DNA from: an uncultured Candidatus Saccharibacteria bacterium
GTDB taxonomy: Bacteria; Patescibacteriota; Minisyncoccia; Phycocordibacterales; PALSA-1337
Direction: 5' to 3'
NCBI GenBank assembly: GCA_964459225.1
Contig: CAYWKB010000001.1
Span: 32,356-96,355, forward strand
Length of the DNA: 64,000 nucleotides
Every line of letters starts with the position of its first letter. Within the stretch, counting starts at the first letter, position 1. Below the pieces are notes generated by a model. The model had not been told where the DNA came from, did no database searches, and saw nothing but the letters and a program-made list of their open reading frames with translations. The translations under genes were made by a program, and so were the position numbers. Below are positions 2,823 through 62,577 of this stretch, one piece after another.

Positions 2823-4016
2823 ATGGCAAGCTTAGTATACATAGCAAGGGATATTGAAAGGGCTTTGGGAGCAGAGCCTATTGGTGATTATTATATTATT
2901 ACAAATAAGACTAGTTATTCAGTATCAATTAAAAATAAATACAATGAAAATGTTTATCTAATTGATAAGGGTGAAATACTGGATACATTTGAACTTTTGT
3001 CTTTGGATGAAGTTCAAGAAATAATAAAAAAATTAAATGCAGATGTTTTGGTATTTAAAAACACAATTCATATACAGCAATATTGTAAAGAAAAAAACAT
3101 AAAACTACTTAATCCCGATGCAAATTTATCAGAAAAAGTTGAAAACAAAATCACTCAGGTGTCTTGGCTTTCTGAATTATCATCATTACTTCCTAAACAT
3201 TTTATATCTACAGTTAGAGAAATCGATGAAAATAAATTAGTAGAAAATAAAGTATTGATTTTTCAATGGTCTCATGGACATACAGGAAATGGAACTATTT
3301 TGATTTCAAATATAAATGAATTAAATGATTTAAAAAAGAAATTCCCTTATAGAGAAGTCAGGGTAACAGAATACATAAAAGGCCCAATGTTTACCGCAAA
3401 TATTGTAGTTACAGATACTGTAATATTACTTGGAAATATTAGTTATCAAATTACTGGAATGCTACCTTTTACCGAAAATGCTTTTAGTACAATAGGAAAT
3501 GACTGGAGTGTTCCGCATACTATTTTGACTGAAAATCACATTAAGTCTTTTGAATCAATTGCAGAAAAAGTGGGGCAAAAAATGCAAAAAGAAAATTGGC
3601 GAGGGCTTTTTGGTATTGATGTTATATACGATGAAGAAAGAGATGAATTAAAATTAATTGAAATAAATGCAAGACAACCAGCATCAACAACTTATGAATC
3701 ACAGCTTCAAGCAAAATTTAAAATTCATGGAATACCAGGATCAACAGTATTTGAGGCACATGTAAATGCTCTATTAAAAAATGGAAAAGTATTACCACTT
3801 ATACCCATAAATGACGGCGCACAAATATTGCAAAGAGTGACAAAGTTAACTCGTAAAGTTGATACAAGTAAACTCACAAATGCAGGATATAAAGTAATAC
3901 AATATGATGAAATAAAAGATAATTCTGATCTAGTAAGAATACAAAGCGATAAAGGTATCATGGAAGTTCATAATAAATTTAATAAGAGAGGAAAAGAAAT
4001 AATTACTCTAATCTAA
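2823..4016 (+). CDS. ATP-grasp domain protein (unknown ligase)
   Basis: GIDVIYDEERDELKLIEINARQP ATP-grasp C-domain signature; 397 aa. Confidence 0.55.
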   Translation: MASLVYIARDIERALGAEPIGDYYIITNKTSYSVSIKNKYNENVYLIDKGEILDTFELLSLDEVQEIIKKLNADVLVFKNTIHIQQYCKEKNIKLLNPDANLSEKVENKITQVSWLSELSSLLPKHFISTVREIDENKLVENKVLIFQWSHGHTGNGTILISNINELNDLKKKFPYREVRVTEYIKGPMFTANIVVTDTVILLGNISYQITGMLPFTENAFSTIGNDWSVPHTILTENHIKSFESIAEKVGQKMQKENWRGLFGIDVIYDEERDELKLIEINARQPASTTYESQLQAKFKIHGIPGSTVFEAHVNALLKNGKVLPLIPINDGAQILQRVTKLTRKVDTSKLTNAGYKVIQYDEIKDNSDLVRIQSDKGIMEVHNKFNKRGKEIITLI

Positions 4017-4798
4017 ATAAACCAAGACAATCTCCTTACTTCGGTTGTAGATTTCTTTGCTCTCGTATGTGTGTAGTTTTCTTCTCCTTGTTTATCATTT
4101 TCTATCCATCTTTGTTCAACAATATTTTTATTTATATCGACTATTTCTATTTTACCTTCATGTATACCGTGACCGTATTCACCATCAGTTGGCCATGCTA
4201 TTGAATGTGTATAGTGCAATATTGTAGGAATAAAGTTTTGATATTCGATTTGGTAAATAATCAAAACATGATCTCTTTCTTTTCCTGATACATCGTTACT
4301 ATTTGTCATTGTAATAATGTCACCGACTTGAATATCTTTTGTATGAATACTTATACTATTATCGTTATGAGCAAAAGTTCTAACATCAGTGTTTTCGATA
4401 GGCCTTATTTTTGATTTTATTTTTCCCAAAAATCCACCAGCAAAAGGAAACGCCAAATGCTTATCTATTGTGCCCTTGCCTTTATTTTTTGATTCCTCAT
4501 TTAAGATGTAGTATGCATAACCTGAGCAATCTATACCAATATCATTGTCTACTAGTATTTTTTTTAAATCCTCTGAGTCAATTTCTTTTGAATTTATTTT
4601 ATTTAATATCAAAATATGCTCAATTTCAGAAAAAATTTCTTTAGGACTTCCCTTGCCAACATTTACCCTAAGTGCTGCCCTTTTAGAACCTCTGCGATTA
4701 TTGAAATACGGAATAGAACAAATAGCGTTGCCGATACGGAATTCTTTATACTGTGCAATGATATCCATTGCATCTTTTGATAGTAATTTTGTATTCAT
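4013..4798 (-). CDS. NlpC/P60-like papain-fold cysteine peptidase domain protein (cytoplasmic, no signal peptide)
   Basis: DCSGYAYYI (catalytic Cys context) followed by GDIITMT...RDHVLIIYQ (His context) mirrors NlpC/P60 Cys/His arrangement. Confidence 0.4.
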   Translation of the reverse strand: MNTKLLSKDAMDIIAQYKEFRIGNAICSIPYFNNRRGSKRAALRVNVGKGSPKEIFSEIEHILILNKINSKEIDSEDLKKILVDNDIGIDCSGYAYYILNEESKNKGKGTIDKHLAFPFAGGFLGKIKSKIRPIENTDVRTFAHNDNSISIHTKDIQVGDIITMTNSNDVSGKERDHVLIIYQIEYQNFIPTILHYTHSIAWPTDGEYGHGIHEGKIEIVDINKNIVEQRWIENDKQGEENYTHTRAKKSTTEVRRLSWFI

Positions 4799-4864: not shown

Positions 4865-5992
4865 ATGATAAGCATACTTGAAGGATCAGCAAACCTTTCA
4901 TATATATTGAGTTTTTCCGTTTGGGCTTTTATTGTAGCCTTATTATTTTCTCCTGTACTAATTCATTTTTTGTATAAATATAAGGTTTTTAAGGGACAAA
5001 AAGTTGAATTAAAAAATATAGACTCACAAAGAGGAAAGGATAAAACTCCAGTAATGGGAGGATTGCTGGTTATATTAACTGTCGCAATTATTACTTATTT
5101 ATATAATTGGTCTAGAAGTTATACTTGGGTACCCATAAGTGTCATGCTTATATCTGCATCACTTGGAGCTATTGATGACTTATTAAATATCTATGGAGCA
5201 GAAAGAAGGTCAAGGAAATTGTCTCAAATATTTACCCTAATAAAAGTTCACAAGGAATTCAAAATGAGACTTTGGTATATCATCACATTGCCATGGTCAA
5301 TATTTAAAAGAACATCAGTATGGCTTGGCTCAAGAACAAATCGAGGTATTTTTGTTCATGAAAAATTATTTTTGCAATTTATAGCTGGATCAATAACTGC
5401 CTGGTGGATATATGACAAACTTGGCACAGCTTGGCATTATTTATATTTACCTTTTGGTCATGATTTTTATTTAGGATTTTATATTATACCCGTCATAATC
5501 CTTATTGTTATGTTTACAGCAAATGCAGTTAATATTGGTGATGGAATGGATGGACTTGCGGGTGGTATGCTTATTTCTTCTTTTAGTGCACTTACAATAC
5601 TAAGTTGGTTAAATGGTTTTGGTGAAATCGCAGCATTAAATGCAACAGTTGTGGGTGCGCTCGCTATATATACTTATTATAATATTAAACCAGCGAGATT
5701 TATGATGGGTGACGTAGGTTCATTGGGTTTAGGTGCACTCTTTGCCGTAAACACAATAGCAATCGGTGAAATTGGATCAATATTTTTCTTAGGATTTTTA
5801 TTTTATATTGAAGCGTTTAGTGTATTGGTACAGGTTGCCGGTAAATATATTTTAGGTAAAAAAATATTTAAAATGGCACCAATACATCACCATTTTGAAT
5901 TAAAAGGCTGGAGTGAAGAAAAGACCATAATGCGTTTTTGGATTATACACTTTATCTTTGTAGTATTTGGAGTTTGGCTTGCATTACAATAA
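4865..5992 (+). CDS. mraY: phospho-N-acetylmuramoyl-pentapeptide transferase MraY
   Basis: KTPVMGGL, DDLLNI, NAVNIGDGMDGLAGG, HHHFEL motifs. Confidence 0.85.
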   Translation: MISILEGSANLSYILSFSVWAFIVALLFSPVLIHFLYKYKVFKGQKVELKNIDSQRGKDKTPVMGGLLVILTVAIITYLYNWSRSYTWVPISVMLISASLGAIDDLLNIYGAERRSRKLSQIFTLIKVHKEFKMRLWYIITLPWSIFKRTSVWLGSRTNRGIFVHEKLFLQFIAGSITAWWIYDKLGTAWHYLYLPFGHDFYLGFYIIPVIILIVMFTANAVNIGDGMDGLAGGMLISSFSALTILSWLNGFGEIAALNATVVGALAIYTYYNIKPARFMMGDVGSLGLGALFAVNTIAIGEIGSIFFLGFLFYIEAFSVLVQVAGKYILGKKIFKMAPIHHHFELKGWSEEKTIMRFWIIHFIFVVFGVWLALQ

Positions 5993-6641
5993 TTTCTTTA
6001 TGAAATATTTACATTGGAAAGAAGAAAAAATAACAGACGCAACGCCAGAATTTATATCAAAAATGTATGATAGCGGATATGTATTTACAAGAATACAAAA
6101 AGGCATAATGCATCAAACAAGAAGCGTTAGAGTTAATTTAAATAAATTTGATTTATCTAGTGAAAATAGAAGGATTTTAAAAAAAGGTCAGGAAGTGTCT
6201 ATTGATATTCATGATATCCCCTACAATAATTATGATTGGAAAATAGGTAAAATAGCAAAAGACTTTTACGATACAAAAGCACCTGGAGATTTTTCGGTAA
6301 ACAAAATAAAAGAGATAATCACCACAGATCATAATTTTAATACCCTGATAGATTTCAATAAAGTAGGTTATACGATATGCTATATGAATAATGAAATATT
6401 ACATTATTCATATCCATTTTATGATTTAAACAATTCACCAAAAGATATGGGTTTGATTATGATGACCAAAACTATTTCAGAAATGAAAACACGCGGATTA
6501 AAATATGTATATCTTGGATCATTACAAAGGACAAATGATACATATAAATTACAATTTGGAGGTATGGAATGGTTTGATGGAACAAAGTGGAGTGAGGATT
6601 TGGAGGAGGTTAAAAAGATACTATTACCAATTCACGAATAG
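5967..6641 (+). CDS. aminoacyl-tRNA--substrate transferase-like protein (Bpt/ATE C-domain-like, GNAT fold); probable real start ATG at 5998-6000
   Basis: C-terminal KYVYLGSLQRTNDTYKLQFGGMEWFDGTKW matches Y.YLG...YK..F...W core of arginyl/leucyl-tRNA protein transferases; overlaps/abuts mraY stop. Confidence 0.45.
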   Translation: MEFGLHYNNFFMKYLHWKEEKITDATPEFISKMYDSGYVFTRIQKGIMHQTRSVRVNLNKFDLSSENRRILKKGQEVSIDIHDIPYNNYDWKIGKIAKDFYDTKAPGDFSVNKIKEIITTDHNFNTLIDFNKVGYTICYMNNEILHYSYPFYDLNNSPKDMGLIMMTKTISEMKTRGLKYVYLGSLQRTNDTYKLQFGGMEWFDGTKWSEDLEEVKKILLPIHE

Positions 6642-6892
6642 AGTTCGCTGTGACTGCCGATTGCATATAATAAACATGCATCCTTATTTATTTTTTTATA
6701 TATCACTCTTATATCACTAGTAATATTGATGCTTCTATATTCTGAATAGACTCCATGTAATTTATGGTTATTAAGTATTGGATTATATTCATCATCCAAG
6801 AAAAAATCTAATTTCTTACTAAAATTACTTTTATCCTTTTTAGAAAGCTTTTTAAATGATTTTTTGAATTTACTAGAATAAGCTAAGAACAT
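6632..6892 (-). CDS. yafQ: type II toxin, YafQ/RelE-family mRNA interferase
   Basis: HKLHGVYSEYRSINITSDIRVIYKK...LLYAIGSHSELY matches YafQ/RelE catalytic region; directly downstream of DinJ-like antitoxin. Confidence 0.7.
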   Translation of the reverse strand: MFLAYSSKFKKSFKKLSKKDKSNFSKKLDFFLDDEYNPILNNHKLHGVYSEYRSINITSDIRVIYKKINKDACLLYAIGSHSELYS

Positions 6893-6894
6893 TA

Positions 6895-7164
6895 TTATTT
6901 ACCCGATAAACTTTTAATAAAATCCTTACTACCCTTGTGAAATTTTATTTTCCCCTCATTAAGTTCTTTATCTGTCTCCTCAATTATTTTTCTAAGATAT
7001 GGGGACGGGTTATAGGAAGCAGAAAAGACTACTTCTCTATCCCTAACGAATTGCCTGAGAAATGAATTAATAACTGTACTCAATGGCACACCAATCTCTT
7101 CAGCAACCTCTTGAGCTGTATCTTTTATTACTTTATCCGTTTTAATTGTTAAAAGTGTTTTCAT
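6895..7164 (-). CDS. dinJ: type II antitoxin, RelB/DinJ family (start at ATG 7162-7164; ORF track extended to TTG at 7179)
   Basis: MKTLLTIKTDKVIKDTAQEVAEEIGVPLSTVINSFLRQFVRDREV = RHH DinJ signature. Confidence 0.7.
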   Translation of the reverse strand: MKTLLTIKTDKVIKDTAQEVAEEIGVPLSTVINSFLRQFVRDREVVFSASYNPSPYLRKIIEETDKELNEGKIKFHKGSKDFIKSLSGK

Positions 7165-7169
7165 AAATT

Positions 7170-7187
7170 TATATACCAAAGTATATA
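7170..7187. promoter_or_regulatory. palindrome TATATAC-caaa-GTATATA immediately upstream of dinJ start: likely TA operator/promoter
   Basis: perfect 7-bp inverted repeat, 5 nt from antitoxin ATG. Confidence 0.45.
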
Positions 7188-7307: not shown

Positions 7308-8711
7308 ATGTCATCACCAAAACACATACATATAGTCGGCATAGCCGGTGTAGCAACAAGCGCTATCGCTATTGCTTTTCATAAAACTGGATGGAAAGTT
7401 ACAGGTTCTGATAAGGGATTTTTCCCTCCTGTTTCAACCGAATTAGAAAAAAATAATATTTCATTTTATGCTGGTTGGCATCCTGAAAATATTGCAAATT
7501 TTGAAAAAAAGCCTGATCTCATAATGACCGGTGGAAGTGGAACAAGCGCATCAAATCCTGAAGTTATTTATGCAAAGGAAAATAATATTCCAGTGTATGA
7601 CTATCCTCGAATTCTTGAAAAATATTTCATTAAAAAGAACTCTATCGTGACTGTTGGAACCTGGGGGAAAACCACTTCTTCTTCCCTGCTTTCATTTATC
7701 TTAATTCAAGCAGGTATGGATCCATCGTATTTTACTGGAGGTCTTTCGCTTTCACATGACACTGGTGCTATTTCAGATAGCGATTGGAGTGTTGTTGAGG
7801 GTGATGAATATCAAGTCTCTATTTCTGATAAAAGACCGAAGTTTGTTTATTATGCACCAACACATTTGCTCCTGACATCTGTTTCTTGGGATCACGCTGA
7901 CCTTTACCCCACAGAAGCAGATTATTTTAAGGTTTTTTATGATTTAGTTGAAAAGCCTAATCTGATTGTTGCTTGTAATGATGACGCAGGTGTAAATACG
8001 GTAATCAAAAATAGTAAGAAAAAAATAATTACATACGGTAAAACTGAGGAAGCAAATTATTATTTTCATTCTATTTCACATAATAAGGACGGACTTAAAT
8101 TTAAAATTAAAAGTGCTTCAGAAGAATACGATATTCAAACACCAATGCTCGGACGTTTTAATGCCGAAAATATCACTGGGGTCTTTGCGATGGCAAAAGA
8201 AATCGGAATTCCAACAGACAAAATAATAAAAGCGATTTCTGATTTTAAAGGAATCAAAAGAAGATTTGAAAAAAGACTCGAAACGGATATTACTGTTTTT
8301 GATTGTCATGCACCCACAGCTGAAAAGGCAATGTCAATACTCGAAAGTCTCAGAGAGGTTTATAGCAAAAACATAATTGCAGTTTATGAACCAAATATAG
8401 GAGGTAGACAGAGAAGTTCGGCTTCAATGTATGACAATGCTTTCAAAAATGCAGATGTTGTAATAATTCCTCGCCTAAGTAAATTAAAAATAGATGAAAA
8501 AGCTACAGAACAACCAATGGAAGGAAATGAATTGGCTTCAGTTATTTCAAAAACACATTCTAATACAAAATTTATTGAAAACGATGAACTTGTTATAAAA
8601 ACATTAGTTGAAATTGCAAAAAAAGACGATGTAATCGTCTATCTTGGTTCGCACGGTTTTAGAGGAATGATCGAAGAAACTATTACTTCCCTTCGTCAAC
8701 AATTGAAGTAG
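7308..8711 (+). CDS. murC: UDP-N-acetylmuramate--L-alanine ligase MurC (Mur ligase family)
   Basis: IHIVGIAGVATSAIAIAF...TGSD N-terminal Rossmann, GTWGKTTSSSLL P-loop; TATAAT (7296-7301) 6 nt before ATG. Confidence 0.7.
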   Translation: MSSPKHIHIVGIAGVATSAIAIAFHKTGWKVTGSDKGFFPPVSTELEKNNISFYAGWHPENIANFEKKPDLIMTGGSGTSASNPEVIYAKENNIPVYDYPRILEKYFIKKNSIVTVGTWGKTTSSSLLSFILIQAGMDPSYFTGGLSLSHDTGAISDSDWSVVEGDEYQVSISDKRPKFVYYAPTHLLLTSVSWDHADLYPTEADYFKVFYDLVEKPNLIVACNDDAGVNTVIKNSKKKIITYGKTEEANYYFHSISHNKDGLKFKIKSASEEYDIQTPMLGRFNAENITGVFAMAKEIGIPTDKIIKAISDFKGIKRRFEKRLETDITVFDCHAPTAEKAMSILESLREVYSKNIIAVYEPNIGGRQRSSASMYDNAFKNADVVIIPRLSKLKIDEKATEQPMEGNELASVISKTHSNTKFIENDELVIKTLVEIAKKDDVIVYLGSHGFRGMIEETITSLRQQLK

Positions 8712-8904: not shown

Positions 8905-9789
8905 ATGCTAACAAAACAAGATGAGTACAAAGATTTAGCAAAAGTCTTGGGTATTAACAAATTAATACTTAAAAGAGAAGACTTGCACCCATACGGTTCT
9001 CATAAAGGCAGATCAATTCCTAAAATGATTGATTTGTATTTATCGAAAGGTATTAGGCATTTTGCTATTTCTTCATCTGGTAATGCAGCTCTCGCGGCGG
9101 CATTTTATATAAATAAATTAAATTCAGAAAATAAATTAGGCGAAAATGAAAAAATTAATTTAAATATACTTGTCGGTCAAAATATAAATAAGAAAAAACT
9201 ACACAAAATAGAACCTTTTAAAAGCGAAAATATAAATATAACAATGCATGATAGACCATTGCAGACATTGTTTAATATTTTAAAAGATCAAAATATAGTC
9301 GGACTTAGACAATCAACAGATGATAATGCCCTTTTGGGTTATAGAGAATTAGCAGAAGAATTAGAAAAAATAAATGATCTTGAAGCTATTTTTATTGGGA
9401 CATCATCTGGCACAACAGCACAAGCATTGGCAGAATACTTTATACAAAAAAATAAAAAAGTTGAAATTCATATAGTTCAAACAACTTCTTGTCATCCTAT
9501 AGCAATTAATTATGTGGATTCAGTACAGGAAGAAATATCAGTAGCAGATGCAATAGTAGATCAAACTGCAATTAGAAAAGATAAAATTATTGAATTAATA
9601 AATAAATGCAATGGATCAGGATGGATTGCGACAAATGAACAAATAAAAAGCGCCGAAGAAATGACCAAAAAATACGCAAATCTTGAAATTTCAAATAATA
9701 GTGCATTATCAATCGCTGGTCTTATGCAAGCAGTTTACACAGGAAAGGAATGGGCTGGATCAGTAGTTTGTGTTATATGTGGTGATTAG
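8905..9789 (+). CDS. PLP-dependent enzyme, fold-type II (Trp-synthase-beta/threonine dehydratase superfamily)
   Basis: HPYGSHKGR (S-x-K PLP-lysine context), glycine-rich SSGNAA loop; 294 aa. Confidence 0.5.
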   Translation: MLTKQDEYKDLAKVLGINKLILKREDLHPYGSHKGRSIPKMIDLYLSKGIRHFAISSSGNAALAAAFYINKLNSENKLGENEKINLNILVGQNINKKKLHKIEPFKSENINITMHDRPLQTLFNILKDQNIVGLRQSTDDNALLGYRELAEELEKINDLEAIFIGTSSGTTAQALAEYFIQKNKKVEIHIVQTTSCHPIAINYVDSVQEEISVADAIVDQTAIRKDKIIELINKCNGSGWIATNEQIKSAEEMTKKYANLEISNNSALSIAGLMQAVYTGKEWAGSVVCVICGD

Positions 9790-11082
9790 TTAGAGATTTC
9801 TAATCGCTCTTACAAATACTTCCCCTCTATGTTTGCGTGAATTATAAATACCCACAGCATCAAATGCTGGACTAAATAATACAATGTCACCTTTGCTTGA
9901 ATTATTGAAAGCAATTGATACAGCATCATCTATATCAAATGCATGGAGTACATTGACTTCATTTATTTTGTCTATAACACTTCTATATCCAATGGTTCCA
10001 CTTCCTGGTAATACAATTATATTTTTTACATAATTTGATAATTCCTTTAATAAAAAATTATAGTCATGACCTGTATATGAACCACCTATTATAATAGAAA
10101 TATTTTTATTATTTGATAATGATTTTAATGCCAAAATAGTTGAATGTGGTGATATGGATGAAGAATCATTATAAAACTCTATACTATTAACCTTCTTTAT
10201 GGCTTCAATACGTCCTTTAAGACCCAAAAAGCCCTGTATAACCTCTTTTGCTATGTCTTTTGATACCTTGAACAATTCACTGGTTTGTAGGGCTAAAGAG
10301 GCATTTTCCCTGTCATAAGCAACCTTTCTATGTGAAATCCAATCACTTGGAATACTGCTACTTCTTGTCCTTAATATCTTTGCCCTAATTTCAATTTCAT
10401 CCTTAACTAAATCGATAACATTATCAGAGGCAATAATAAAGTTATTGTATGTTTGGAATTCTAATATTTTTGAAGAGATCTTTGATGTTAGTACTGCAAC
10501 ATGAGGACTAATACGAATTTCATGATAATAAGGTATGAGATTTTCTTGAATGCGAACAATAACAACATCGCCTTTTTTAATCTTTTTTAAGTGTGTGAGT
10601 ACGCCATTTGATGTATCTGAGTCAATAACAAAAAGCCCCTGATCCTCATAATCAACAAAAGACTTTTTAAGCATTTGATGTATCAAATGAGCAACTGTGC
10701 TTTTACCGTACACACCAAGAACACCGATGATTGTAACTGTTGGAACTAATTTAAAAAATAATATCTCAGCATATTCAATCTGTATACCTGCCTCAATTGC
10801 CTTTTTAAGGAAATGAGATTTTTTAGAGATATCAGAGGAAAGTATTATGAGATCCGAATCAAGTAAATCATTTTGATTTATCTTCCCATAACTAACTTTA
10901 TTCAAATTTAAATCAATTAAATCTGAGGCGATATCTTCTAACTTTGATTCACTTCTCATATCATACACAGAAACAATTGATTTATTTTTTGCAAGAAACT
11001 TTATATCAGCCAACATCTCTCCATGTGGACCTAGTCCTATTACTGATATTTTTTTATCTTTAAAAAAGTCTTTGTATATCAC
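9790..11082 (-). CDS. murD: UDP-N-acetylmuramoylalanine--D-glutamate ligase MurD (Mur ligase)
   Basis: KKISVIGLGPHG N-terminus, IIGVLGVYGKST P-loop, 430 aa. Confidence 0.65.
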   Translation of the reverse strand: MIYKDFFKDKKISVIGLGPHGEMLADIKFLAKNKSIVSVYDMRSESKLEDIASDLIDLNLNKVSYGKINQNDLLDSDLIILSSDISKKSHFLKKAIEAGIQIEYAEILFFKLVPTVTIIGVLGVYGKSTVAHLIHQMLKKSFVDYEDQGLFVIDSDTSNGVLTHLKKIKKGDVVIVRIQENLIPYYHEIRISPHVAVLTSKISSKILEFQTYNNFIIASDNVIDLVKDEIEIRAKILRTRSSSIPSDWISHRKVAYDRENASLALQTSELFKVSKDIAKEVIQGFLGLKGRIEAIKKVNSIEFYNDSSSISPHSTILALKSLSNNKNISIIIGGSYTGHDYNFLLKELSNYVKNIIVLPGSGTIGYRSVIDKINEVNVLHAFDIDDAVSIAFNNSSKGDIVLFSPAFDAVGIYNSRKHRGEVFVRAIRNL

Positions 11083-18669: not shown

Positions 18670-20289
18670 AATTGAAATAATCCACGAGCAGCTTCCGCTA
18701 CCCGTGCCTTGTTACGACTTACTCCCTGTCATTGAGCTTACCTTAGGCCACGACAAGCGTAGACTTCGGGTATTCCCAACTCCCTTGAGTTGACGGGCGG
18801 TGAGTACAAGACTTGAGAACGTATTCACCGCAGTATAGCTGACCTGCGATTACTAGCAATTCCAACTTCATGAGGTCGAGTTGCAGACCTCAATCCGAAC
18901 TGGGGATAGCTTTATAAGGATTTGCTCCATCTTTCGACTTTGCGTCCTGTTGTACTATCCATTGTATCACGTGTGTAGCCCAGGGTATAAGGGACATGCT
19001 GACCTGGCGTCATCCTCACCTTCCTCCCACGACGCAGCAAACAATTTTACAGAGGTTAGGAAAAATTGGTTCACATCACTTGCGTGCGTAGTAACTTTTT
19101 ATATCTCTTACGAGCTATAAAAAGTTCTCCGCACCGGATGTTCACTCAATTTTTCATCATCTCAACAAAATTCCGCACTGTGTCGTGGGCAGTCTCGCCT
19201 GACAAATATAACAGACAACGAGGGTTGCGTTCGTTACCCCACTGAAGGGAACAACTCAAGCCACGAACTGACGACGGCCATGCATCACCTGACTAACTGT
19301 CTTGCGACGCCAAAAGTTTCTTCTTGGCTTCAGCTAGATTAAACCCTGGTAAGGTTCTTCGTTTATCATCGAATTAAACCACATGATCCACTGCTTGTGC
19401 AAGTCCCCGTCTATTCCTTTGAGTTTTAACCTTGCGGTCGTACTACCCAGGCGCTTCTCTTAACGCGTTAGCTACGCCACTCAGAGGGTCGATACTCCGA
19501 ATAGCTAGAGAAGATCGTTTAGGGCGTGGACTACTGGGGTATCTAATCCCATTCGCGACCCACGCTTTCTTGTTTCAGTGTCAGGAGTGCTCTAGTCTGC
19601 TGCCTTCGCTTTTGGTGTTCCCCATAATATCAACGCATTTTACCGCTACACTATGAGTTCCGCAGACCTCTCGCATCCTCTAGTCATACCGTTTCCCTTG
19701 CATGCCCCCGGTTAAGCCGAAGAATTTAACAAGAGACTAATATAACCACCTACACAACCTTTACGCCCAATGATTCCGGATAACGCTTGAGGCACTCGTA
19801 TTACCGCTGCTGCTGGCACGAGTTTAGCAACCTCTTATTCGCCAAGTACTATCAATAAACTTTCTCCCTGGCAAAAGAACTTTACATGCCTAAGCACTTC
19901 ATCGTTCACGCGGCGTCGCTCCGTCAGACTTTCGTCCATTGCGGAAGATTCTCGACTGCGGCCACCCGTAGGTGTATGGACCGTGTCTCAGTTCCATCGG
20001 TGGGGGTCACCCTCTCAGGTCCCCTAGGCGTCATAGCCTTGGTGAGCTTTTACCTCACCAACTAGCTGATACCGAGCAGGCTCATCTTGAAGCGATAAAT
20101 CTTTAGTCTTTCGACACCATCAAGTATTAACTCATCTTTCGATGAGGTATTCCTGACTTCAAGGTTGATACCTACTTATTACTACCTCGTCTGCCACTGA
20201 CTATATATTGCTATACAGCCCGTTTGACTTGCATGCCTTATCCACGCCGCCAGCGTTCATCCTGAGCTAGGATCAAACTCTTAACTAAA
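18670..20289 (-). rRNA. rrs: 16S rRNA (about 1620 nt) with ~140-nt AT-rich expansion in helix 40 (plus coords ~19030-19175) and non-canonical 3' tail lacking CCUCC
   Basis: rc matches AGAGTTTGATCCTAGCTCAG (20262-20281), GTATTACCGCTGCTGCTGGCAC, GGACTACTGGGGTATCTAATCC, ACGGGCGGTGAGTACAAG, CCTTGTTACGACTT; flanking leader/trailer complementarity (18481-18507 vs 20290-20330). Confidence 0.9.
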
Positions 20290-25075: not shown

Positions 25076-26245
25076 ATGAAGGTGCTTTTACTTATCACCA
25101 AATCAAATATGGGTGGCGCACAGAGATATGTATACGATATCGCCACAAATTTACCTAAAGACATCTATGAAGTAGAGGTTATGGCGGGAGGTAATGGGCC
25201 ACTTATTGAAAGCCTGCAATCCGCTGGAATAAAAGCTTCAGGAAATTTACCTGTAGGTAGAGATATAAATCTCATTCAAGATATAAAATCTTTTTTTGAA
25301 TTATTTAAAATAATAAGAGAAAAAAAGCCAGATGTATTACATGTAAATAGTTCTAAAATAGGCGGCATCGGAGCATTTATTGGTAGATTACTTGGAATTA
25401 AAAACATAATATTTACCGCTCATGGTTTTGCATTCAATGAAGACAGAAGTCGTCTTTCTAAATTAATTATTAAGTTCTTCCATTGGTTAACTATTTTCCT
25501 TTCTCATAAAACTATATTAGTTTCAGAAGCCTTAAAATATCAAATAGCAGATTGGCCATACATAGAAGGCAAATTATATGTAATTCGTAATGGTTTAGAT
25601 AGCAAAGCAGTATATTCTAAAATAAATGCTAGGTATGAATTAGGGAAAATCAATAAAGACTTTGATAAAATAATTAAAGAAAATAAAAACACAATTATAA
25701 TAGGCAGTGTCGGTGAATTGCATCACATAAAAGGCTATGAATACGCTATTAGAGCTATTTCAAACTTAATAAAAGATATTAGAAAGAGTAGCCCCGATAA
25801 AAAAATAATCTATACAATATTTGGTGAAGGTGAAGACAGAATTAACATAGAAAAAGAAATACATTATCAAGAATTAAAAGACTCAGTAATATTATTTGGT
25901 AATATCAAAGACGCATTTCAATATATGAAGGCATTTGATATTTACCTTATGCCATCCATATCAGAAGGATTACCATATGCCCTTCTTGAGGCGGGTATTG
26001 TTGGTCTTCCGGTTGTTGCTAGTGCAGTAGGTGGAATACCTGAAGTTGTGGAGGATATGAAAACTGGTGTATTAATACAATCTAAAAAACCAAAAGAAAT
26101 TCAGCATGCATTAGAATTCTACATATCACACAAAAAGATTCAGGGTGATCATGCAAAATTGTTAATGACTAATATTCAGAACAATTTTTCTATTTCAAAA
26201 ATGCTTGAAAATACAATCAAAGTATACAATACTAAGCACCAATAA
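25076..26245 (+). CDS. glycosyltransferase family 4 (GT-B)
   Basis: EGLPYALLEAGIVGLPVVASAVGGIPEVV motif. Confidence 0.75.
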   Translation: MKVLLLITKSNMGGAQRYVYDIATNLPKDIYEVEVMAGGNGPLIESLQSAGIKASGNLPVGRDINLIQDIKSFFELFKIIREKKPDVLHVNSSKIGGIGAFIGRLLGIKNIIFTAHGFAFNEDRSRLSKLIIKFFHWLTIFLSHKTILVSEALKYQIADWPYIEGKLYVIRNGLDSKAVYSKINARYELGKINKDFDKIIKENKNTIIIGSVGELHHIKGYEYAIRAISNLIKDIRKSSPDKKIIYTIFGEGEDRINIEKEIHYQELKDSVILFGNIKDAFQYMKAFDIYLMPSISEGLPYALLEAGIVGLPVVASAVGGIPEVVEDMKTGVLIQSKKPKEIQHALEFYISHKKIQGDHAKLLMTNIQNNFSISKMLENTIKVYNTKHQ

Positions 26246-27395
26246 ATTCATTTTTCATATCGTCTTTATGGGCTGTTCTTCTATATCTTCTCATACCCAT
26301 TAATATTCCGAGTCCAGTGAATTCTGTTAGTAAATGCGTACCACCATAACTCAAAAAAGGTAGCGTGGTTCCAGTAACAGGAAGCAATTGAATATTCATA
26401 CCAATATTAATAAAAAAGTGCACAACAATAAGTATCGCAACACCTGTACCAAATAATATTTCAAAATTCGAATCTCCTCTCATGCTGTTTCGTACTATTC
26501 TCCATATAACTATACCGAAAAGTGAAAATACAATAATCACTCCGATAAATCCCCATTCTTCTGCAAATGCTGCAAAAATAAAGTCAGTTTGATATTCAGG
26601 TAGGAATTTTAATCTAGACTGTGTGCCATATCCAACACCCTTGCCCCATATTTGCCCTGACCCCACCGCAATTGTCGATTGATAGGCATTATAGCCAGTA
26701 CCATGTATATCTGCCATAGGATTTATGAAGTTCAATATTCTATTTTTCTGATATTCCTTGAAGCCAAAATTCCATAGCCCTATAAACATCATAATTCCCA
26801 GCAAAATCATACCTAAAAGATGTTTTTTGGATAAACCCGATACGAATATCATTCCTAGCCATATAAAAAATATTATAATTGCAGAACCAAAGTCAGGCTG
26901 TATCAATACCAAAAGGAAAATCGTAAATGCATATATACCAGATATAAATATATGTTTTAAATCAGCAATTTCTATATGTCTTCTTGAAAAATACTTTGCT
27001 AAAATGATTATCACAACAAGCTTAATTGGGTCTGATGGCTGAAATGACAGTAGTCCAAAATCAAACCACGATATCGCTCCTTTTGTTACTTTTGCAACAA
27101 AAAATAGCAGCACAAGAAGGAAACATGATCCAAAAAAAAGAGTTACAGAAACCCATGTCTTTCTTAAAAATCTAAAATCTATAAAACTCAGACTAAAAAA
27201 TATTATAAGGGAAATACAAATCCAAATTGACTGCTTTTCAAAATAACTACCATCTCCAACAAATGAATTCATAGTGATAAGTCCAGCACCAAGTAGTGGT
27301 AAAGTAGCTAGGAAAAGTATCCAGTCTATACCCGCCTTATCACCATTATTCATTATTGAATAACTTCCAAATAGTCTTTCAAAAATATTTTTCAT
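26232..27395 (-). CDS. ftsW: SEDS-family peptidoglycan polymerase/lipid II flippase (FtsW/RodA)
   Basis: 10-TM SEDS pattern, 387 aa. Confidence 0.75.
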   Translation of the reverse strand: MKNIFERLFGSYSIMNNGDKAGIDWILFLATLPLLGAGLITMNSFVGDGSYFEKQSIWICISLIIFFSLSFIDFRFLRKTWVSVTLFFGSCFLLVLLFFVAKVTKGAISWFDFGLLSFQPSDPIKLVVIIILAKYFSRRHIEIADLKHIFISGIYAFTIFLLVLIQPDFGSAIIIFFIWLGMIFVSGLSKKHLLGMILLGIMMFIGLWNFGFKEYQKNRILNFINPMADIHGTGYNAYQSTIAVGSGQIWGKGVGYGTQSRLKFLPEYQTDFIFAAFAEEWGFIGVIIVFSLFGIVIWRIVRNSMRGDSNFEILFGTGVAILIVVHFFINIGMNIQLLPVTGTTLPFLSYGGTHLLTEFTGLGILMGMRRYRRTAHKDDMKNEFIGA

Positions 27396-30206: not shown

Positions 30207-30321
30207 CTTTGTACTGGCGACTAGCTACTTTCCCCTTCATATGAGTATCATCGCCGCAACTGCGTTTCACTTCCGTGTTCGGAATGGGAACGGGTGTTTC
30301 CACAGCGCCAAATCACCAGAA
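30207..30321 (-). rRNA. rrf: 5S rRNA
   Basis: rc contains GCGTTTCACTTCCGTGTTCGGAATGGGAACGGGTGTTTCC matching conserved 5S core. Confidence 0.8.
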
Positions 30322-30720
30322 CAAAAAATTCAATCTGTTGATAAAAATTCAGATAAACAAAAGCTTATCGAATTTTAATAAATAAAGGTTTGTGCTTGTT
30401 ATAGACAAGTAATTGTGGTTCTTAAATTTCCTAATAGGATCGACGGATTAGTACTTCTCAGCTTAACATATTACTATGCGTACACCTAAAGCCTATCAAC
30501 GTAATCATCTCTTACGGGTCTCAAACGATTCCTAATCTTGGGGTTGGCTTCCTTCTTAGATGCTTTCAGAAGTTATCCATTCCGAACATAGCTACACTGC
30601 GATGCTCTTGGCAGAACAGCAGTCACACCAGAGGTTCGTTCAATTTGGTCCTCTCGTACTAAAATCAAATCCCCTCAAGAATCAACGCCTGCAGTAGATA
30701 GGAGACCAACCTGTCTCACG

Positions 30721-31276
30721 CTTGTTATCATAGATTACTCTATGCAATGGACTATAGCTTCACCTTCTTACGAAGGTTGTTAACGTTTAGTCTCTACGGG
30801 TGTTTATGAGTTTTGAAGAGAAGGCGAGACACAAGTTCCTGAGCTTTCGCCCCTCGTCCCCTAGGGGACTCTTAGGCGTGATTCCTTCGGATACGCCTAG
30901 CAATACATGTGCCTCACCAAAATTTGAGAACAAAAATTCTCTACAAAACTCACAAACTTCCCTCGGTATTATCCCTTTTTCATGGACTTCCACCGATTTT
31001 AGTTAACTTGATCTTTCTTATATTACTATAAGTGACCGCCGTGTTTGATTGATCTACTTCCTATACTTTTATTTTGTATAAATGTTACTTTATACTTTTC
31101 TTAAACGAAAAACTCGAAGTGATTCAGACTGTTCAATTGTTATAATTGCTTTACAAAATTATATTTCTCAAAATACTCGCATACTTTTCTGCTGAAAAGT
31201 TGCTCTTCTCGGCGCCAAGCGCCTGCGAAAGGTATTTTTCGAAACAAATTTTGCTCCGCTTAGTCATCACAACTAA
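30721..31276 (-). ncRNA. group I-like intron in 23S at E. coli position ~2593 (between ...AGACCGU and CGUGAGACAG), ~556 nt, no convincing homing-endonuclease ORF
   Basis: exon sequences contiguous in E. coli are split here; 5' exon ends in U, insertion ends in G; internal GCGG can pair with exon CCGU (P1 with U.G); known hotspot for group I introns. Confidence 0.55.
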
Positions 31277-31942
31277 ACGGTCTGAACCCAGCTCGCGTAA
31301 CTTTTTAATTGGCGAACAGCCAAACCCTTGGAAGCTTCTCCACCTCCAGGATAAGTTGAGCCGACATCGAGGTGCCGAACTGCGCCGTCGCTATGAACGC
31401 TTAGGCGCAACCAGCCTGTTATCCCTAGAGTAGCTTTTGGTCCGATAATCTTCCCCCGCGTCTAATGCGTAAGGTCGGTTCACTATGTTCTGCTTTCGCA
31501 TCTGTTCGACAAGTACGTCTTACAGTCAAGCCAGCTTATGCCATTACACTATCGGCACGGTTTCCATTCGCGCCTAGCTGACCTTAATAAACTCCTCCGT
31601 TACTTTTTAGGAGGATAGCGCCCCACTAAAACTGCCCGCCAGATTCTGTCTCTTGCCGTTTTTGCCGTCAAGGTTAGAATATATATTTTTTAAGAATGGT
31701 ATTTCACTGTCGGATCCATCTTCCCCGAAAGAAAAACTTCAAATCCTCCCATCTACGCTACGCATAAAAAACATATAGTCAAAATCAAGTTGCAGTAAAG
31801 CTTCTAGGGTCTTTTCGTCTAACTGCAGGTAATCGGCATCTTCACCGATATTGTATTTTCACCGAGCAAGTCTCCGAGACAGTTCTCCAGACATTACACT
31901 ATTCGTGCGCGTCAGAACTTACCTGACAAGGAATTTCGCTCT

Positions 31943-32194
<252 letters not shown>

Positions 32195-32997
32195 CAGGGC
32201 TTACAACAGTCAGCTTGATATAATCGCACCGCCGTTGTTTGACCTTCTGGCATTGGTCAAGTGTCACCCCCTATACATCCTCTTACGAGTTCGCAGGGAG
32301 CTGTGTTTTTGATAAACAGTTGCCAGAGATACTTTAGCTGCGGCCCTTCTTGCGAAGGGCAAGCCTTATTCCGAAGTTACGGCTGATTTTTTGCCGAGTT
32401 CCTTGGAGACCTCTCACTCGTTCGCCTTGGTCTACTCGACCTGAACACCTGTGTCGGTTTGCGGTACGGTTCCTGCATAGATAAGTTTAGAAGATTTTCT
32501 TGGAAGCGCGCTTTATAACATCTAAAAGGGCGAACCCCTCTATTTTCACTCTACTCGGAATTGTCATCAAAGACATTACCCGGATTTTCCTGGGTAAATT
32601 CCCTATAGCATGAACTCAAATCCAATAATGAGCGTCATATACTGCACTCCGTCCCTTCATCACTCTATACAAAAGTCATGGAATATTAACCATGTGTCCA
32701 TCGGGTGCGGTTTTCACCATCCCCTTAGGCCCGACTAACCCTTGGCTGATTTACATAGCCAAGGAAACCTTGTTCTTTCGGCGTGCCGGATTCTCACCGG
32801 CATTGTGGTTACTTGTGCCAACATTCTTACTTCCAAACGCTCCAGCATGGCTCACGCCTTTGCCTTCAACGCAGATTGGAATACTCTCCTACCACTGTAT
32901 ATTATCGAAATAAAATACAATCCTCAGTTTCGGTATCATGTTTAACCCCGATTATCTGCGGCGCAGAATCTCTCGATGAGTGAGCTGTTACGCTTTC

Positions 32998-33029
<32 letters not shown>

Positions 33030-33602
33030 TCATTGTTTGAGAAATTCAACCACCTTAAGCGTACTTAACATGAATTTAGGGACCTTAAATGGAGATCTAG
33101 GCTGTTTCCTTTTTGACGTATGGAGCTTAGCCCCCACCGTCTAACTGCTGAATAATTTAACCTCTGTATTCGGAGTTTGATAGGTCTCGTGATCTTTCGA
33201 CCTGTCGAGACCTTCCAGTGCTCTACCCCAGAGGGGTACATTCAACGCTAGCCCAAAAGCTATTTCGGAGAGAACCAGCTATTACCAGATTCGATTAGCT
33301 TATCACTCCTTACCTCAAGTCATCGCAGAGAATTGCACAACTCTAGCGTTCGGACCTCCCTTTCCACTTCTGAAAAGTTCATCCTGCTCAAGGCAAGCTC
33401 ATCTGGCTTCGGGTCTGATGCATACTACGAACGCGCTATTCACACTCGGTTTCCCTGTGGCTCCAGTCTCTCGACCTTAGCCTGCAGCATGCTTCAACTC
33501 GTTGGCTCATTCTTCAATAGGCACGCAGTCGAGGTATTGCTACCTCTTCTACTCCTTGTAAATATATGGTTTCAGGTCTATTTCATCGCCCTTACCGGGC
33601 TG

Positions 33603-33642
<40 letters not shown>

Positions 33643-34545
33643 TTCTAGAATATTTAGCCTTACCGGTTAGTTCCGGCAGATTCCCCCGAGCTATTCGTGT
33701 CTCGAGGTACTCAAGAATAGGAACAAAAAAGATCTTTTGATTTCGACTACAGGGCTATCACCTTCTGGGGCTAAGCTTTCCAGCTTATTCTTCTATCAAA
33801 AAATTTTGTAACTTTTCTGTTATAAATAACACGTTCCTACCTTACTACCCCCAACCTTTATCGCACGATAGGACATGAGAGACATTGCTGTCCCCCAAAA
33901 TTCCTATAGCACGATAAAGGTTGAGTTTGGGCTCTTCCGCTTTCGCTCGCCGCTACTTACGAAATTCTTATTTAGTCTCTATTCCTCCAGGTACTGAAAT
34001 GTTTTACTTCCCTGGGTGCGCATTCAAATATCAAGTACTTGAATTCTGACTCGAGGTCAGAGGGTTTCCCCATTCGGAGTCTTCCGGATCAAAGGTTGCT
34101 AGGCACCTCCCCGGAAAATATCGTCGCCATGCCACGTCCTTCATCGCTTCTTAGAAGCCTAGGCATCCACCATATACTCTTAAATTTCCCATTAGGAAAT
34201 CTAAAAACCACAATTATTTGTCTACAACTTACAACATACTATTTAATGTATATATTCGAAAAAACCCTAACATATATACATCTTATAGTATTACCTTTAT
34301 TTATCACTCAGTAACTTCCTGATTGTTGAAATTACTGAGTTATTTAATTGTCAATGTTTCTGTCATTATGTTATTGAATTTTTCATTTCAATTTTACAAA
34401 AAAATCGCTTTATTAAGCGACCTTTCCTAACACCGTTTTAAAGCGTTATTATGGCCGTTTAAATAGTGAAGTTTTTAACATATTTCTGTGTAAGGGATAG
34501 TGTATACGAAGGTGAAATTAAAGTCAATAGCGATACATAAAATAG

Positions 34546-62487: not shown

Positions 62488-62577
62488 TGGCGGAAAGAGC
62501 GAGATTCGAACTCGCGGTTCCGATGAAGGAACGGCGGTTTAGTAAACCGCTGGTTTAAACCACTCACCCATCTTTCC
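62488..62577 (-). tRNA. type II tRNA, Ser identity (long variable arm, G73 discriminator, CCA encoded) with anticodon loop UUACUAA -> anticodon ACU (A34)
   Basis: GGAAAGA/TCTTTCC acceptor, 3-bp D stem, GCGGT-TTACTAA-ACCGC anticodon arm, GTTCC/GGAAC variable arm, GCGAG-TTCGAAT-CTCGC T-arm. Confidence 0.7.

Follow-up and report, generated by a model that had tools for sequence, protein, structure and literature searches.

The 64,000-nucleotide (nt) stretch of DNA analyzed here (the window; positions 32,356 to 96,355 of the forward strand of contig CAYWKB010000001.1, assembly GCA_964459225.1, from an uncultured Candidatus Saccharibacteria bacterium) encodes, next to the lipid I synthase gene mraY, a homologue of the Bpt/ATE1 aminoacyl-tRNA transferases that is here named BptL (Table 1). 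This protein retains the fold, the catalytic pair and the tRNA-binding helix of these enzymes, and it is coupled to the cytoplasmic pathway of peptidoglycan precursors by its operon position, by gene overlap and by a natural gene fusion. BptL probably functions at some point in the synthesis of peptidoglycan or in cell division. The more specific reading that we favor, to which we give slightly less than an even chance, is that BptL acts in the cytoplasm as an aminoacyl-tRNA-dependent transferase and introduces branches into peptidoglycan precursors, an analogue of the Fem enzymes that stems from the ATE/Bpt lineage. A wider proposal, held more tentatively still, is that the family, near-universal in much of Patescibacteria, coupled to MurC and found in dcw (division and cell wall) and mre clusters of some Bacteroidota, would constitute a second lineage of tRNA-dependent modifiers of peptidoglycan precursors, one that evolved independently and arose from Bpt/ATE1, not from the Fem fold.

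The open reading frame of BptL lies in a different frame from mraY, and a 7-nt spacer (positions 5993 to 5999) separates the two genes. A mechanical list of open reading frames places its start at TTG 5967, and a preliminary description of this region, made from the DNA letters alone, gave 5967 or 5998 as the start and concluded that the gene overlaps mraY and is translationally coupled to it. Database homologues (n = 1574) have a length of about 210 amino acids and the N terminus M-x-Y-L; of 97 aligned homologues, 95 have Tyr3 and align from M-x-Y-L onward, which identifies ATG 6000 as the start codon. The TTG at 5967 was rejected as a start, since the 11 additional residues have no counterpart in homologues that begin at ATG 6000, and no start codon exists at 5998. 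With the start at ATG 6000, BptL does not overlap mraY here; only the in-frame TTG would produce an overlap. The short spacer is compatible with translational coupling, without being proof of it.

BptL scores below the curated cut-offs of the families to which it is related. Pfam ATE_C matches at 21.0 bits (cut-off, 25), Pfam ATE_N does not match BptL, and the best NCBIfam match, to the PRK01305 arginyltransferase models, has an E value of 2.4e-10 and 40.5 bits against a cut-off of 252. These scores indicate that BptL is a remote relative and no ordinary Bpt. Direct sequence searches of the PDB with BptL and with the family profile (97 sequences) returned no ATE1 and just a weak GNAT match, and eight canonical bpt genes recovered from chromids served as the reference that bridges BptL to ATE1. 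The profile of these eight Bpt sequences matches ATE1 crystal structures with an E value of ~1e-27, and hhalign aligns the BptL profile to this Bpt profile with a probability of 98.1% and an E value of 1e-13 over 188 columns. The top ten structural neighbors of BptL are almost all aminoacyl-tRNA transferases, with acetyl-coenzyme A (CoA) GNATs ranking lower, and Foldseek concurs. The alignment of ATE1 to BptL covers 203 residues, compared with 168 for MprF. The ATE_N-like module is packed on a single GNAT domain, and no tandem GNAT arrangement is present; BptL matches neither PF02388 (FemABX/MurM) nor Pfam DUF2156 (the MprF C-terminal domain), and neither an Acetyltransf_1-type match nor CoA-binding nearest structural neighbors were found for it. 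Automatic pipelines label the family bpt/ate1 (JGI) or hypothetical/GNAT (NCBI). Judging by the profile and structure comparisons, which agree at this level even though the scores stay under the ATE_C and NCBIfam cut-offs, the earlier assignment of the gene as a Bpt/ATE GNAT-fold enzyme is right at the superfamily level.

Residues of BptL were mapped onto klAte1 through the alignment of Bpt to structure 7wfx, in which the chain numbering equals the native numbering plus 4 (verified by C95/C96, R80, Y87, H178 and Y303/K304). The profile alignments on which the mapping rests have 19 to 20% identity, firm near motifs and weak in gapped segments. The predicted catalytic Tyr-Lys pair of BptL corresponds to Y303-K304 of klAte1, which, like F304-K305 of FemX, is the catalytic pair of the enzyme (PMC9351520). 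It lies within the C-terminal peptide quoted in the preliminary description, which was recovered exactly as residues 168 to 197 (positions 6501 to 6590). In klAte1, mutation of Y303/K304 or of the basic patch on helix alpha3 (K112/K115/K119/R120) abolishes activity (Kim et al. 2022; PMC9351520). The counterpart of this patch, helix 54 to 62, is present in the structure model of BptL; in the family S54, E55, N56 and R58 are invariant, and R57 and K62 are each kept by 93 or more of the 97 sequences. The positions of klAte1 K115, K119 and R120 are basic in BptL (R57, K61 and K62), to which the invariant R58 is added; the position of K112 is occupied by Ser54, and K123 falls outside the printed alignment. 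Residues R64, R77 and F83 of Bpt are retained as R31, R44 and F50, together with the R-x-V...F segment and the YxYLG strand. Arginines 31, 41 and 44 are invariant, and the BptL family has 16 invariant residues.

The N-terminal part is shortened. BptL starts about 22 residues later than Bpt and has no N-terminal cysteine segment; the alignment leaves out the part with Bpt C23, and hhalign pairs the Bpt-invariant C67, C70 and C73 with K34, M37 and T40. BptL thus lacks the four-cysteine Zn/Fe-S site (C23, C67, C70 and C73 in Bpt; C23, C26, C95 and C96 in klAte1), and the site is missing in all 97 members, which have a median of two cysteines per protein, none of them conserved. The first arginine of the GFRRSG motif is R80 in klAte1, and reversal of its charge abolishes recognition of N-terminal Asp/Glu (PMC9351520). 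Of this motif BptL keeps G26 and F/Y27, followed by V/L28-F29-T30-R, with RRSGD falling in an hhalign gap, and none of the 97 sequences has a counterpart of klAte1 R80. BptL has thus lost the elements by which Bpt and ATE1 read acidic protein N termini. Since the cysteine site and the arginine for acidic N termini are both missing and the scores lie under the curated thresholds, BptL is not classified as a Bpt.

The donor pocket has also changed. It is formed by S255/S273/E277/Y289 in the Arg-specific ATE1 and by A168/A185/Q189/L201 in the Leu-specific Bpt (PMC9351520), and the same columns of the eight Bpt sequences used here contain A/M, S/L/M, Q/H and V/L. BptL has Y136 (97 of 97 sequences), M154 (96 of 97), A/T158 and I/V170, i.e., Y/M/A/I compared with A/A-S/Q/L-V in Bpt and S/S/E/Y in ATE1. 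As aligned, the pocket of BptL is uncharged and bulkier than those of ATE1 and Bpt, which makes an arginine donor unlikely and a small amino acid possible; glycine, alanine or serine may be suggested, speculatively.

The genomic context of BptL was surveyed by tblastn in 116 loci of Patescibacteria, comprising 32 genome loci retrieved with BptL itself, 4 loci of distant members and 80 loci from metagenomes, for which the family profile was the query. The relatives have 35 to 75% identity, and the counts include related genomes. The preliminary description had made its case depend on the conservation of the mraY adjacency, and 98 of the 102 evaluable loci indeed have mraY upstream in the same orientation, with a median gap of ~15 nt and a gap of at most 50 nt in 65 of them. 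Of 98 loci, 93 have a gene for a MurC-type ligase downstream in the same orientation, which overlaps BptL in 25 and lies within 100 nt in 53. The order of the conserved block is DUF4015 protein, rsmI, ATP-grasp_3, NlpC/P60-like protein, mraY, BptL, murC, an enzyme of the PALP family and murD. Among members at 35% identity, the adjacency to mraY is gone and the start of murC is still overlapped by 8 to 11 nt, in clusters that also contain murA, murB, mraZ, rsmH and a penicillin-binding protein (PBP) gene. The most constant partner of BptL across the family is thus murC and not mraY. In one metagenome contig (L077:184-2681) the order is inverted, with murC at 184 to 1590 and BptL at 2025 to 2681, and the adjacency is kept. 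The Mur-ligase neighborhood noted in the preliminary description is borne out in the window by the MurC-type ligase, by MurD and by a RodA/FtsW-family gene at positions 26232 to 27395 (−). No special tRNA gene was found near the BptL locus.

The association with murC extends to a natural fusion. Cluster P0232 consists of seven proteins of 630 to 654 amino acids from ENA, JGI and NCBI (L131:8001-9938), in which a BptL part (residues 1 to 195, with the YK pair and SSENKRILKK intact) is joined by a Pro/Ser-rich linker of variable length to a complete MurC (residues 215 to 638). The MurC part has the N, M and C domains of Pfam and 28% identity to the MurC of the window (E value of 3e-49). The fusion gene stands in a full dcw cluster, in the order mraZ, rsmH, another gene, a PBP gene, a mur ligase gene, the fusion, murA and mraY, followed further on by PALP, ATP-grasp, ftsW and murG. 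Bifunctional MurC proteins have a precedent in MurC/Ddl (NCBIfam NF011171), in which a cytoplasmic enzyme of peptidoglycan precursor synthesis is likewise fused to MurC; the partner in BptL::MurC, in contrast, is a homologue of aminoacyl-tRNA transferases. Fusion to MurC, a soluble enzyme, favors the nucleotide-precursor stage for the proposed transfer. No description of a Bpt-MurC fusion was found in the searchable full texts.

The next most distant relatives are Cys-less proteins of about 255 amino acids with 27 to 33% identity in Bacteroidota and Calditrichota, which NCBI names “GNAT family N-acetyltransferase” (gene coordinates in Bacteroidota, L045:7001-7777, L129:5660-6442 and L130:6001-6777). 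In Marinilongibacter and Arcticibacterium, both of which can be cultivated, the gene lies in the order ftsW, murG, BptL, an open reading frame for 251 to 253 amino acids, ftsA and ftsZ, with overlapping stops and starts. The position between murG and ftsA is the usual slot of murC. In a metagenome-assembled genome of Saprospiraceae, the BptL relative is divergent from mreB, mreC, another gene and pbp2. Canonical bpt genes differ in their setting from BptL, whose gene forms part of mraY-murC operons or of a fusion with murC: in the three annotated genomes examined, bpt adjoins aat (Acinetobacter) or has no cell-wall neighbors (Sinorhizobium and Sphingomonas).

BptL also differs in architecture from the closest known enzymes. 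It is about 25 to 60 residues shorter than the Bpt proteins examined (238 to 292 amino acids), which, like ATE1, have the Zn/Fe-S site and the GFRRSG arginine that it lacks. In the N-degron pathway these enzymes act together with ClpS/ClpAP, adding Leu/Arg to proteins with N-terminal Asp/Glu, and Bpt is known as leucyl-tRNA-protein transferase. FemX, FemAB and MurM are tandem GNAT proteins of 335 to 420 amino acids with or without a coiled coil, whereas BptL, with one GNAT domain and an ATE_N-like module in 213 amino acids, belongs to another lineage. The C-terminal domain of MprF (DUF2156) is a tandem GNAT fused to a membrane flippase and acylates a lipid hydroxyl, whereas BptL is soluble and has a single GNAT domain.

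Taken as a step on peptidoglycan precursors, for which we infer an aminoacyl-tRNA donor and a peptidoglycan-precursor acceptor, the activity of BptL can be outlined as follows. A soluble cytoplasmic enzyme of the ATE/Bpt lineage would have been retargeted from protein N termini to the peptidoglycan-precursor pathway. The charged tRNA would dock via its acceptor end on the basic helix S54 to K62, placing the aminoacyl ester in the pocket of Y136, M154, A/T158 and I/V170. The ester carbonyl would then be attacked by a free amine of the UDP-MurNAc-peptide, in the simplest case the one on the side chain of the diamino acid at position 3, as with Weissella FemX and MurM, and Y182-K183 would stabilize the tetrahedral intermediate. 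The branched precursor would be passed by MraY to the lipid carrier, so that the modification would precede lipid I. A FemX/MurM-like step was one of the two options raised in the preliminary description, and the linkage to mraY and murC, the fusion and the loss of N-degron features make it the best supported. A replacement of the chemistry of MurC itself by BptL was considered and is ruled out on chemical grounds, as UDP-MurNAc offers a carboxylate and aminoacyl-tRNA transferases need an amine nucleophile. No account of the BptL family, or of a Bpt-like gene in peptidoglycan or dcw clusters, was found in the literature; subscription journals were mostly outside this search, and a prior description is possible.

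Several points weigh against precursor branching by BptL. Its donor and its acceptor are both inferred. The amine-bearing acceptor is made by murE and murF, yet the partner gene is murC. R31 and R44 (Bpt R64 and R77) are kept, so that some acceptor site of the ATE_N type persists. The histidine at the tRNA 3′ end (klAte1 H178, FemX H206 and Bpt H125) aligns to a gap in BptL and to Phe in the family consensus, within a gapped stretch of low confidence. Three of the six relatives in Bacteroidota and Calditrichota (L046 to L048) are without cell-wall neighbors. Finally, most of the 116 loci of Patescibacteria are related, and their synteny is perhaps partly inherited; the distant murC overlaps, the inverted order in L077 and the natural fusion nevertheless argue for selection beyond inheritance.

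The retained arginines lead to the first alternative, close to the other option of the preliminary description (a tagging enzyme recruited to the envelope), in which BptL is still a protein N-terminal aminoacyl transferase of altered specificity that adds an N-degron or a non-degradative tag, its place in the operon reflecting co-regulation with, or action on, envelope and division proteins. We consider this fairly unlikely. The closest homologues and the fold are those of Bpt/ATE1, the ATE_N-like module persists with its three invariant arginines, and the JGI label points the same way. In addition, peptidoglycan enzymes such as MurC fuse with non-sequential partners, as in the NCBIfam model of MurC/Ddl, so that a fusion does not necessarily tell which chemical step is involved. 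The counterpart of klAte1 R80 and the cysteine site are, however, absent throughout the 97 members, and an enzyme that marks proteins for proteolysis in general would not readily be expected to be joined to MurC by a flexible linker. Neither aat nor clpS was seen in the neighborhoods, the tblastn search for ClpS being a weak one (window plus short flanks, with an approximate query).

The MurC-type ligase next to BptL gives rise to a second alternative, as it scores 250 bits with the MurC model, under the cut-off, and 192 bits with Mpl. BptL might act on another small acceptor, namely free D-Glu or a gamma-D-Glu-peptide, yielding a peptide of the L-Ala-D-Glu type that a MurC/Mpl-like ligase would join to UDP-MurNAc in a salvage or bypass route; this would explain murC as the partner. 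The presence of murD in the same block instead indicates the standard stepwise pathway. A lipid or lipid-linked glycan acceptor, as for MprF, is opposed by the lack of a membrane or flippase domain in BptL, by the acylation of hydroxyls by MprF-type enzymes through a tandem GNAT, and by the longer alignment to ATE1 than to MprF. Use of such other small acceptors appears unlikely overall. It is highly improbable that BptL is an acyl-CoA-dependent GNAT N-acyltransferase of peptidoglycan precursors or a non-catalytic partner of MurC or MraY: the NCBI name of the distant relatives, matches to PF13480 and a K-x-x-G-x-G family consensus in the beta4-alpha3 loop that by eye resembles the CoA pyrophosphate-binding motif are outweighed, for the former, by the ranking of the structural neighbors and by the invariance of the ATE-specific Tyr-Lys pair and the basic tRNA helix and, for the latter, by the 16 invariant residues.

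Patescibacteria, also known as the Candidate Phyla Radiation (CPR), account for much of the diversity of bacteria, and to our knowledge the chemistry of their cell walls is almost wholly undescribed. Gram-positive bacteria have the only tRNA-dependent wall enzymes that we know of, the Fem/MurM proteins, which are drug targets and determinants of antibiotic resistance. If BptL acts on peptidoglycan precursors, a new enzyme family would use charged tRNA in building the wall, the prediction would be that CPR walls are branched or otherwise modified from tRNA, and the N-degron transferase fold would offer a clear case of retargeting to a small-molecule acceptor. A second lineage of peptidoglycan modifiers would also mean that N-degron and cell-wall transferases have exchanged roles in evolution. 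If BptL instead tags proteins, it would for the first time connect N-terminal aminoacylation with the machinery of the cell wall and division.

Table 1. Coordinates of BptL, its predicted elements and the neighboring genes in the window
Feature	Position	Strand	Remarks
BptL (Bpt/ATE-like aminoacyl-tRNA-transferase homologue)	6000..6641	+	213 amino acids; ATG 6000 to TAG 6639-6641
Shortened ATE_N-like N-terminal part	6000..6185	+	Residues 1-62; without metal-binding Cys and without the GFRRSG Arg
Basic helix S54-E-N-R-R-I-L-K-K62	6159..6185	+	Counterpart of the tRNA-binding alpha3 patch of klAte1
GNAT (ATE_C-like) catalytic core	6342..6599	+	Residues ~115-200; contains the motif at 6501-6590
Tyr182-Lys183 (predicted catalytic pair)	6543..6548	+	Invariant, 97/97; aligned to the invariant Bpt Y223-K224
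ATP-grasp_3 enzyme	2823..4016	+	Weak NCBIfam matches (PRK06524, archaeal Ddl-like); PF02655 in homologues; candidate amino-acid ligase
NlpC/P60-like protein	4013..4798	−	261 amino acids; Pfam NlpC_P60 E value of 0.0026, sub-threshold; no recognizable signal peptide
mraY (lipid I synthase)	4865..5992	+	TAA 5990-5992; TIGR00445 E value of 1e-51; PF00953
YafQ/RelB-type toxin-antitoxin pair	6632..7179	−	Pfam YafQ_toxin E value of 1.5e-11; weak RelB/DUF6364
MurC-type Mur ligase	7308..8711	+	TIGR01082 murC, 250 bits (cut-off, 335); next Mpl, 192 bits
Fold-type II pyridoxal phosphate enzyme (PALP)	8905..9789	+	PF00291 in homologues; candidate racemase/dehydratase
murD	9790..11082	−	TIGR01087 E value of 2.6e-43; conserved in the loci

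Among the neighboring genes, the toxin-antitoxin pair lies between BptL and murC, is not part of the system and is missing at this place in most relatives. It is arranged tail to tail with BptL, the stop regions overlapping by 10 nt, and occurs at the same position in locus L013 and at other positions in the related loci L011 and L018. Insertions of more than 1 kb separate BptL from murC in 10 of the 93 loci, and the interval looks like an insertion hot spot. The model TIGR00445 matches MraY in two stretches (176 bits; cut-off, 192) and leaves about 50 residues (~100 to 155) unmatched, which suggests a lineage-specific insertion. The NlpC/P60-like protein, with a DCSGY... motif and a downstream His, stands between ATP-grasp and mraY in nearly all relatives, on a strand that varies. 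The family profile of the ATP-grasp_3 enzyme found no match in the PDB, and the PALP enzyme has distant profile matches to Thr synthase, Ser dehydratase and the Asp and Ser racemases. Together, these two enzymes are candidates for a non-canonical pair of D-amino-acid ligase and racemase, and their genes adjoin in the dcw cluster of L131.

Elsewhere in the window, ARAGORN predicts a tRNA-Ser with anticodon ACT at positions 62488 to 62577 (−), where the Rfam tRNA model scores 56 bits. A serine anticodon with A34 is unusual in bacteria, and the prediction may be a miscall or may reflect a modified wobble base. The 16S rRNA gene (18670 to 20288, −) is unlinked from those for 5S (30212 to 30320, −) and 23S rRNA (30428 to 34196, −), with ~10 kb of protein genes, secD/secF-like genes included, between them. 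For 23S rRNA the match extends over 3769 nt and the model over 2925 nt, indicating an insertion of ~0.8 kb, which agrees with the insertion sequences in CPR rRNA genes reported in a published study (PMC11270868).

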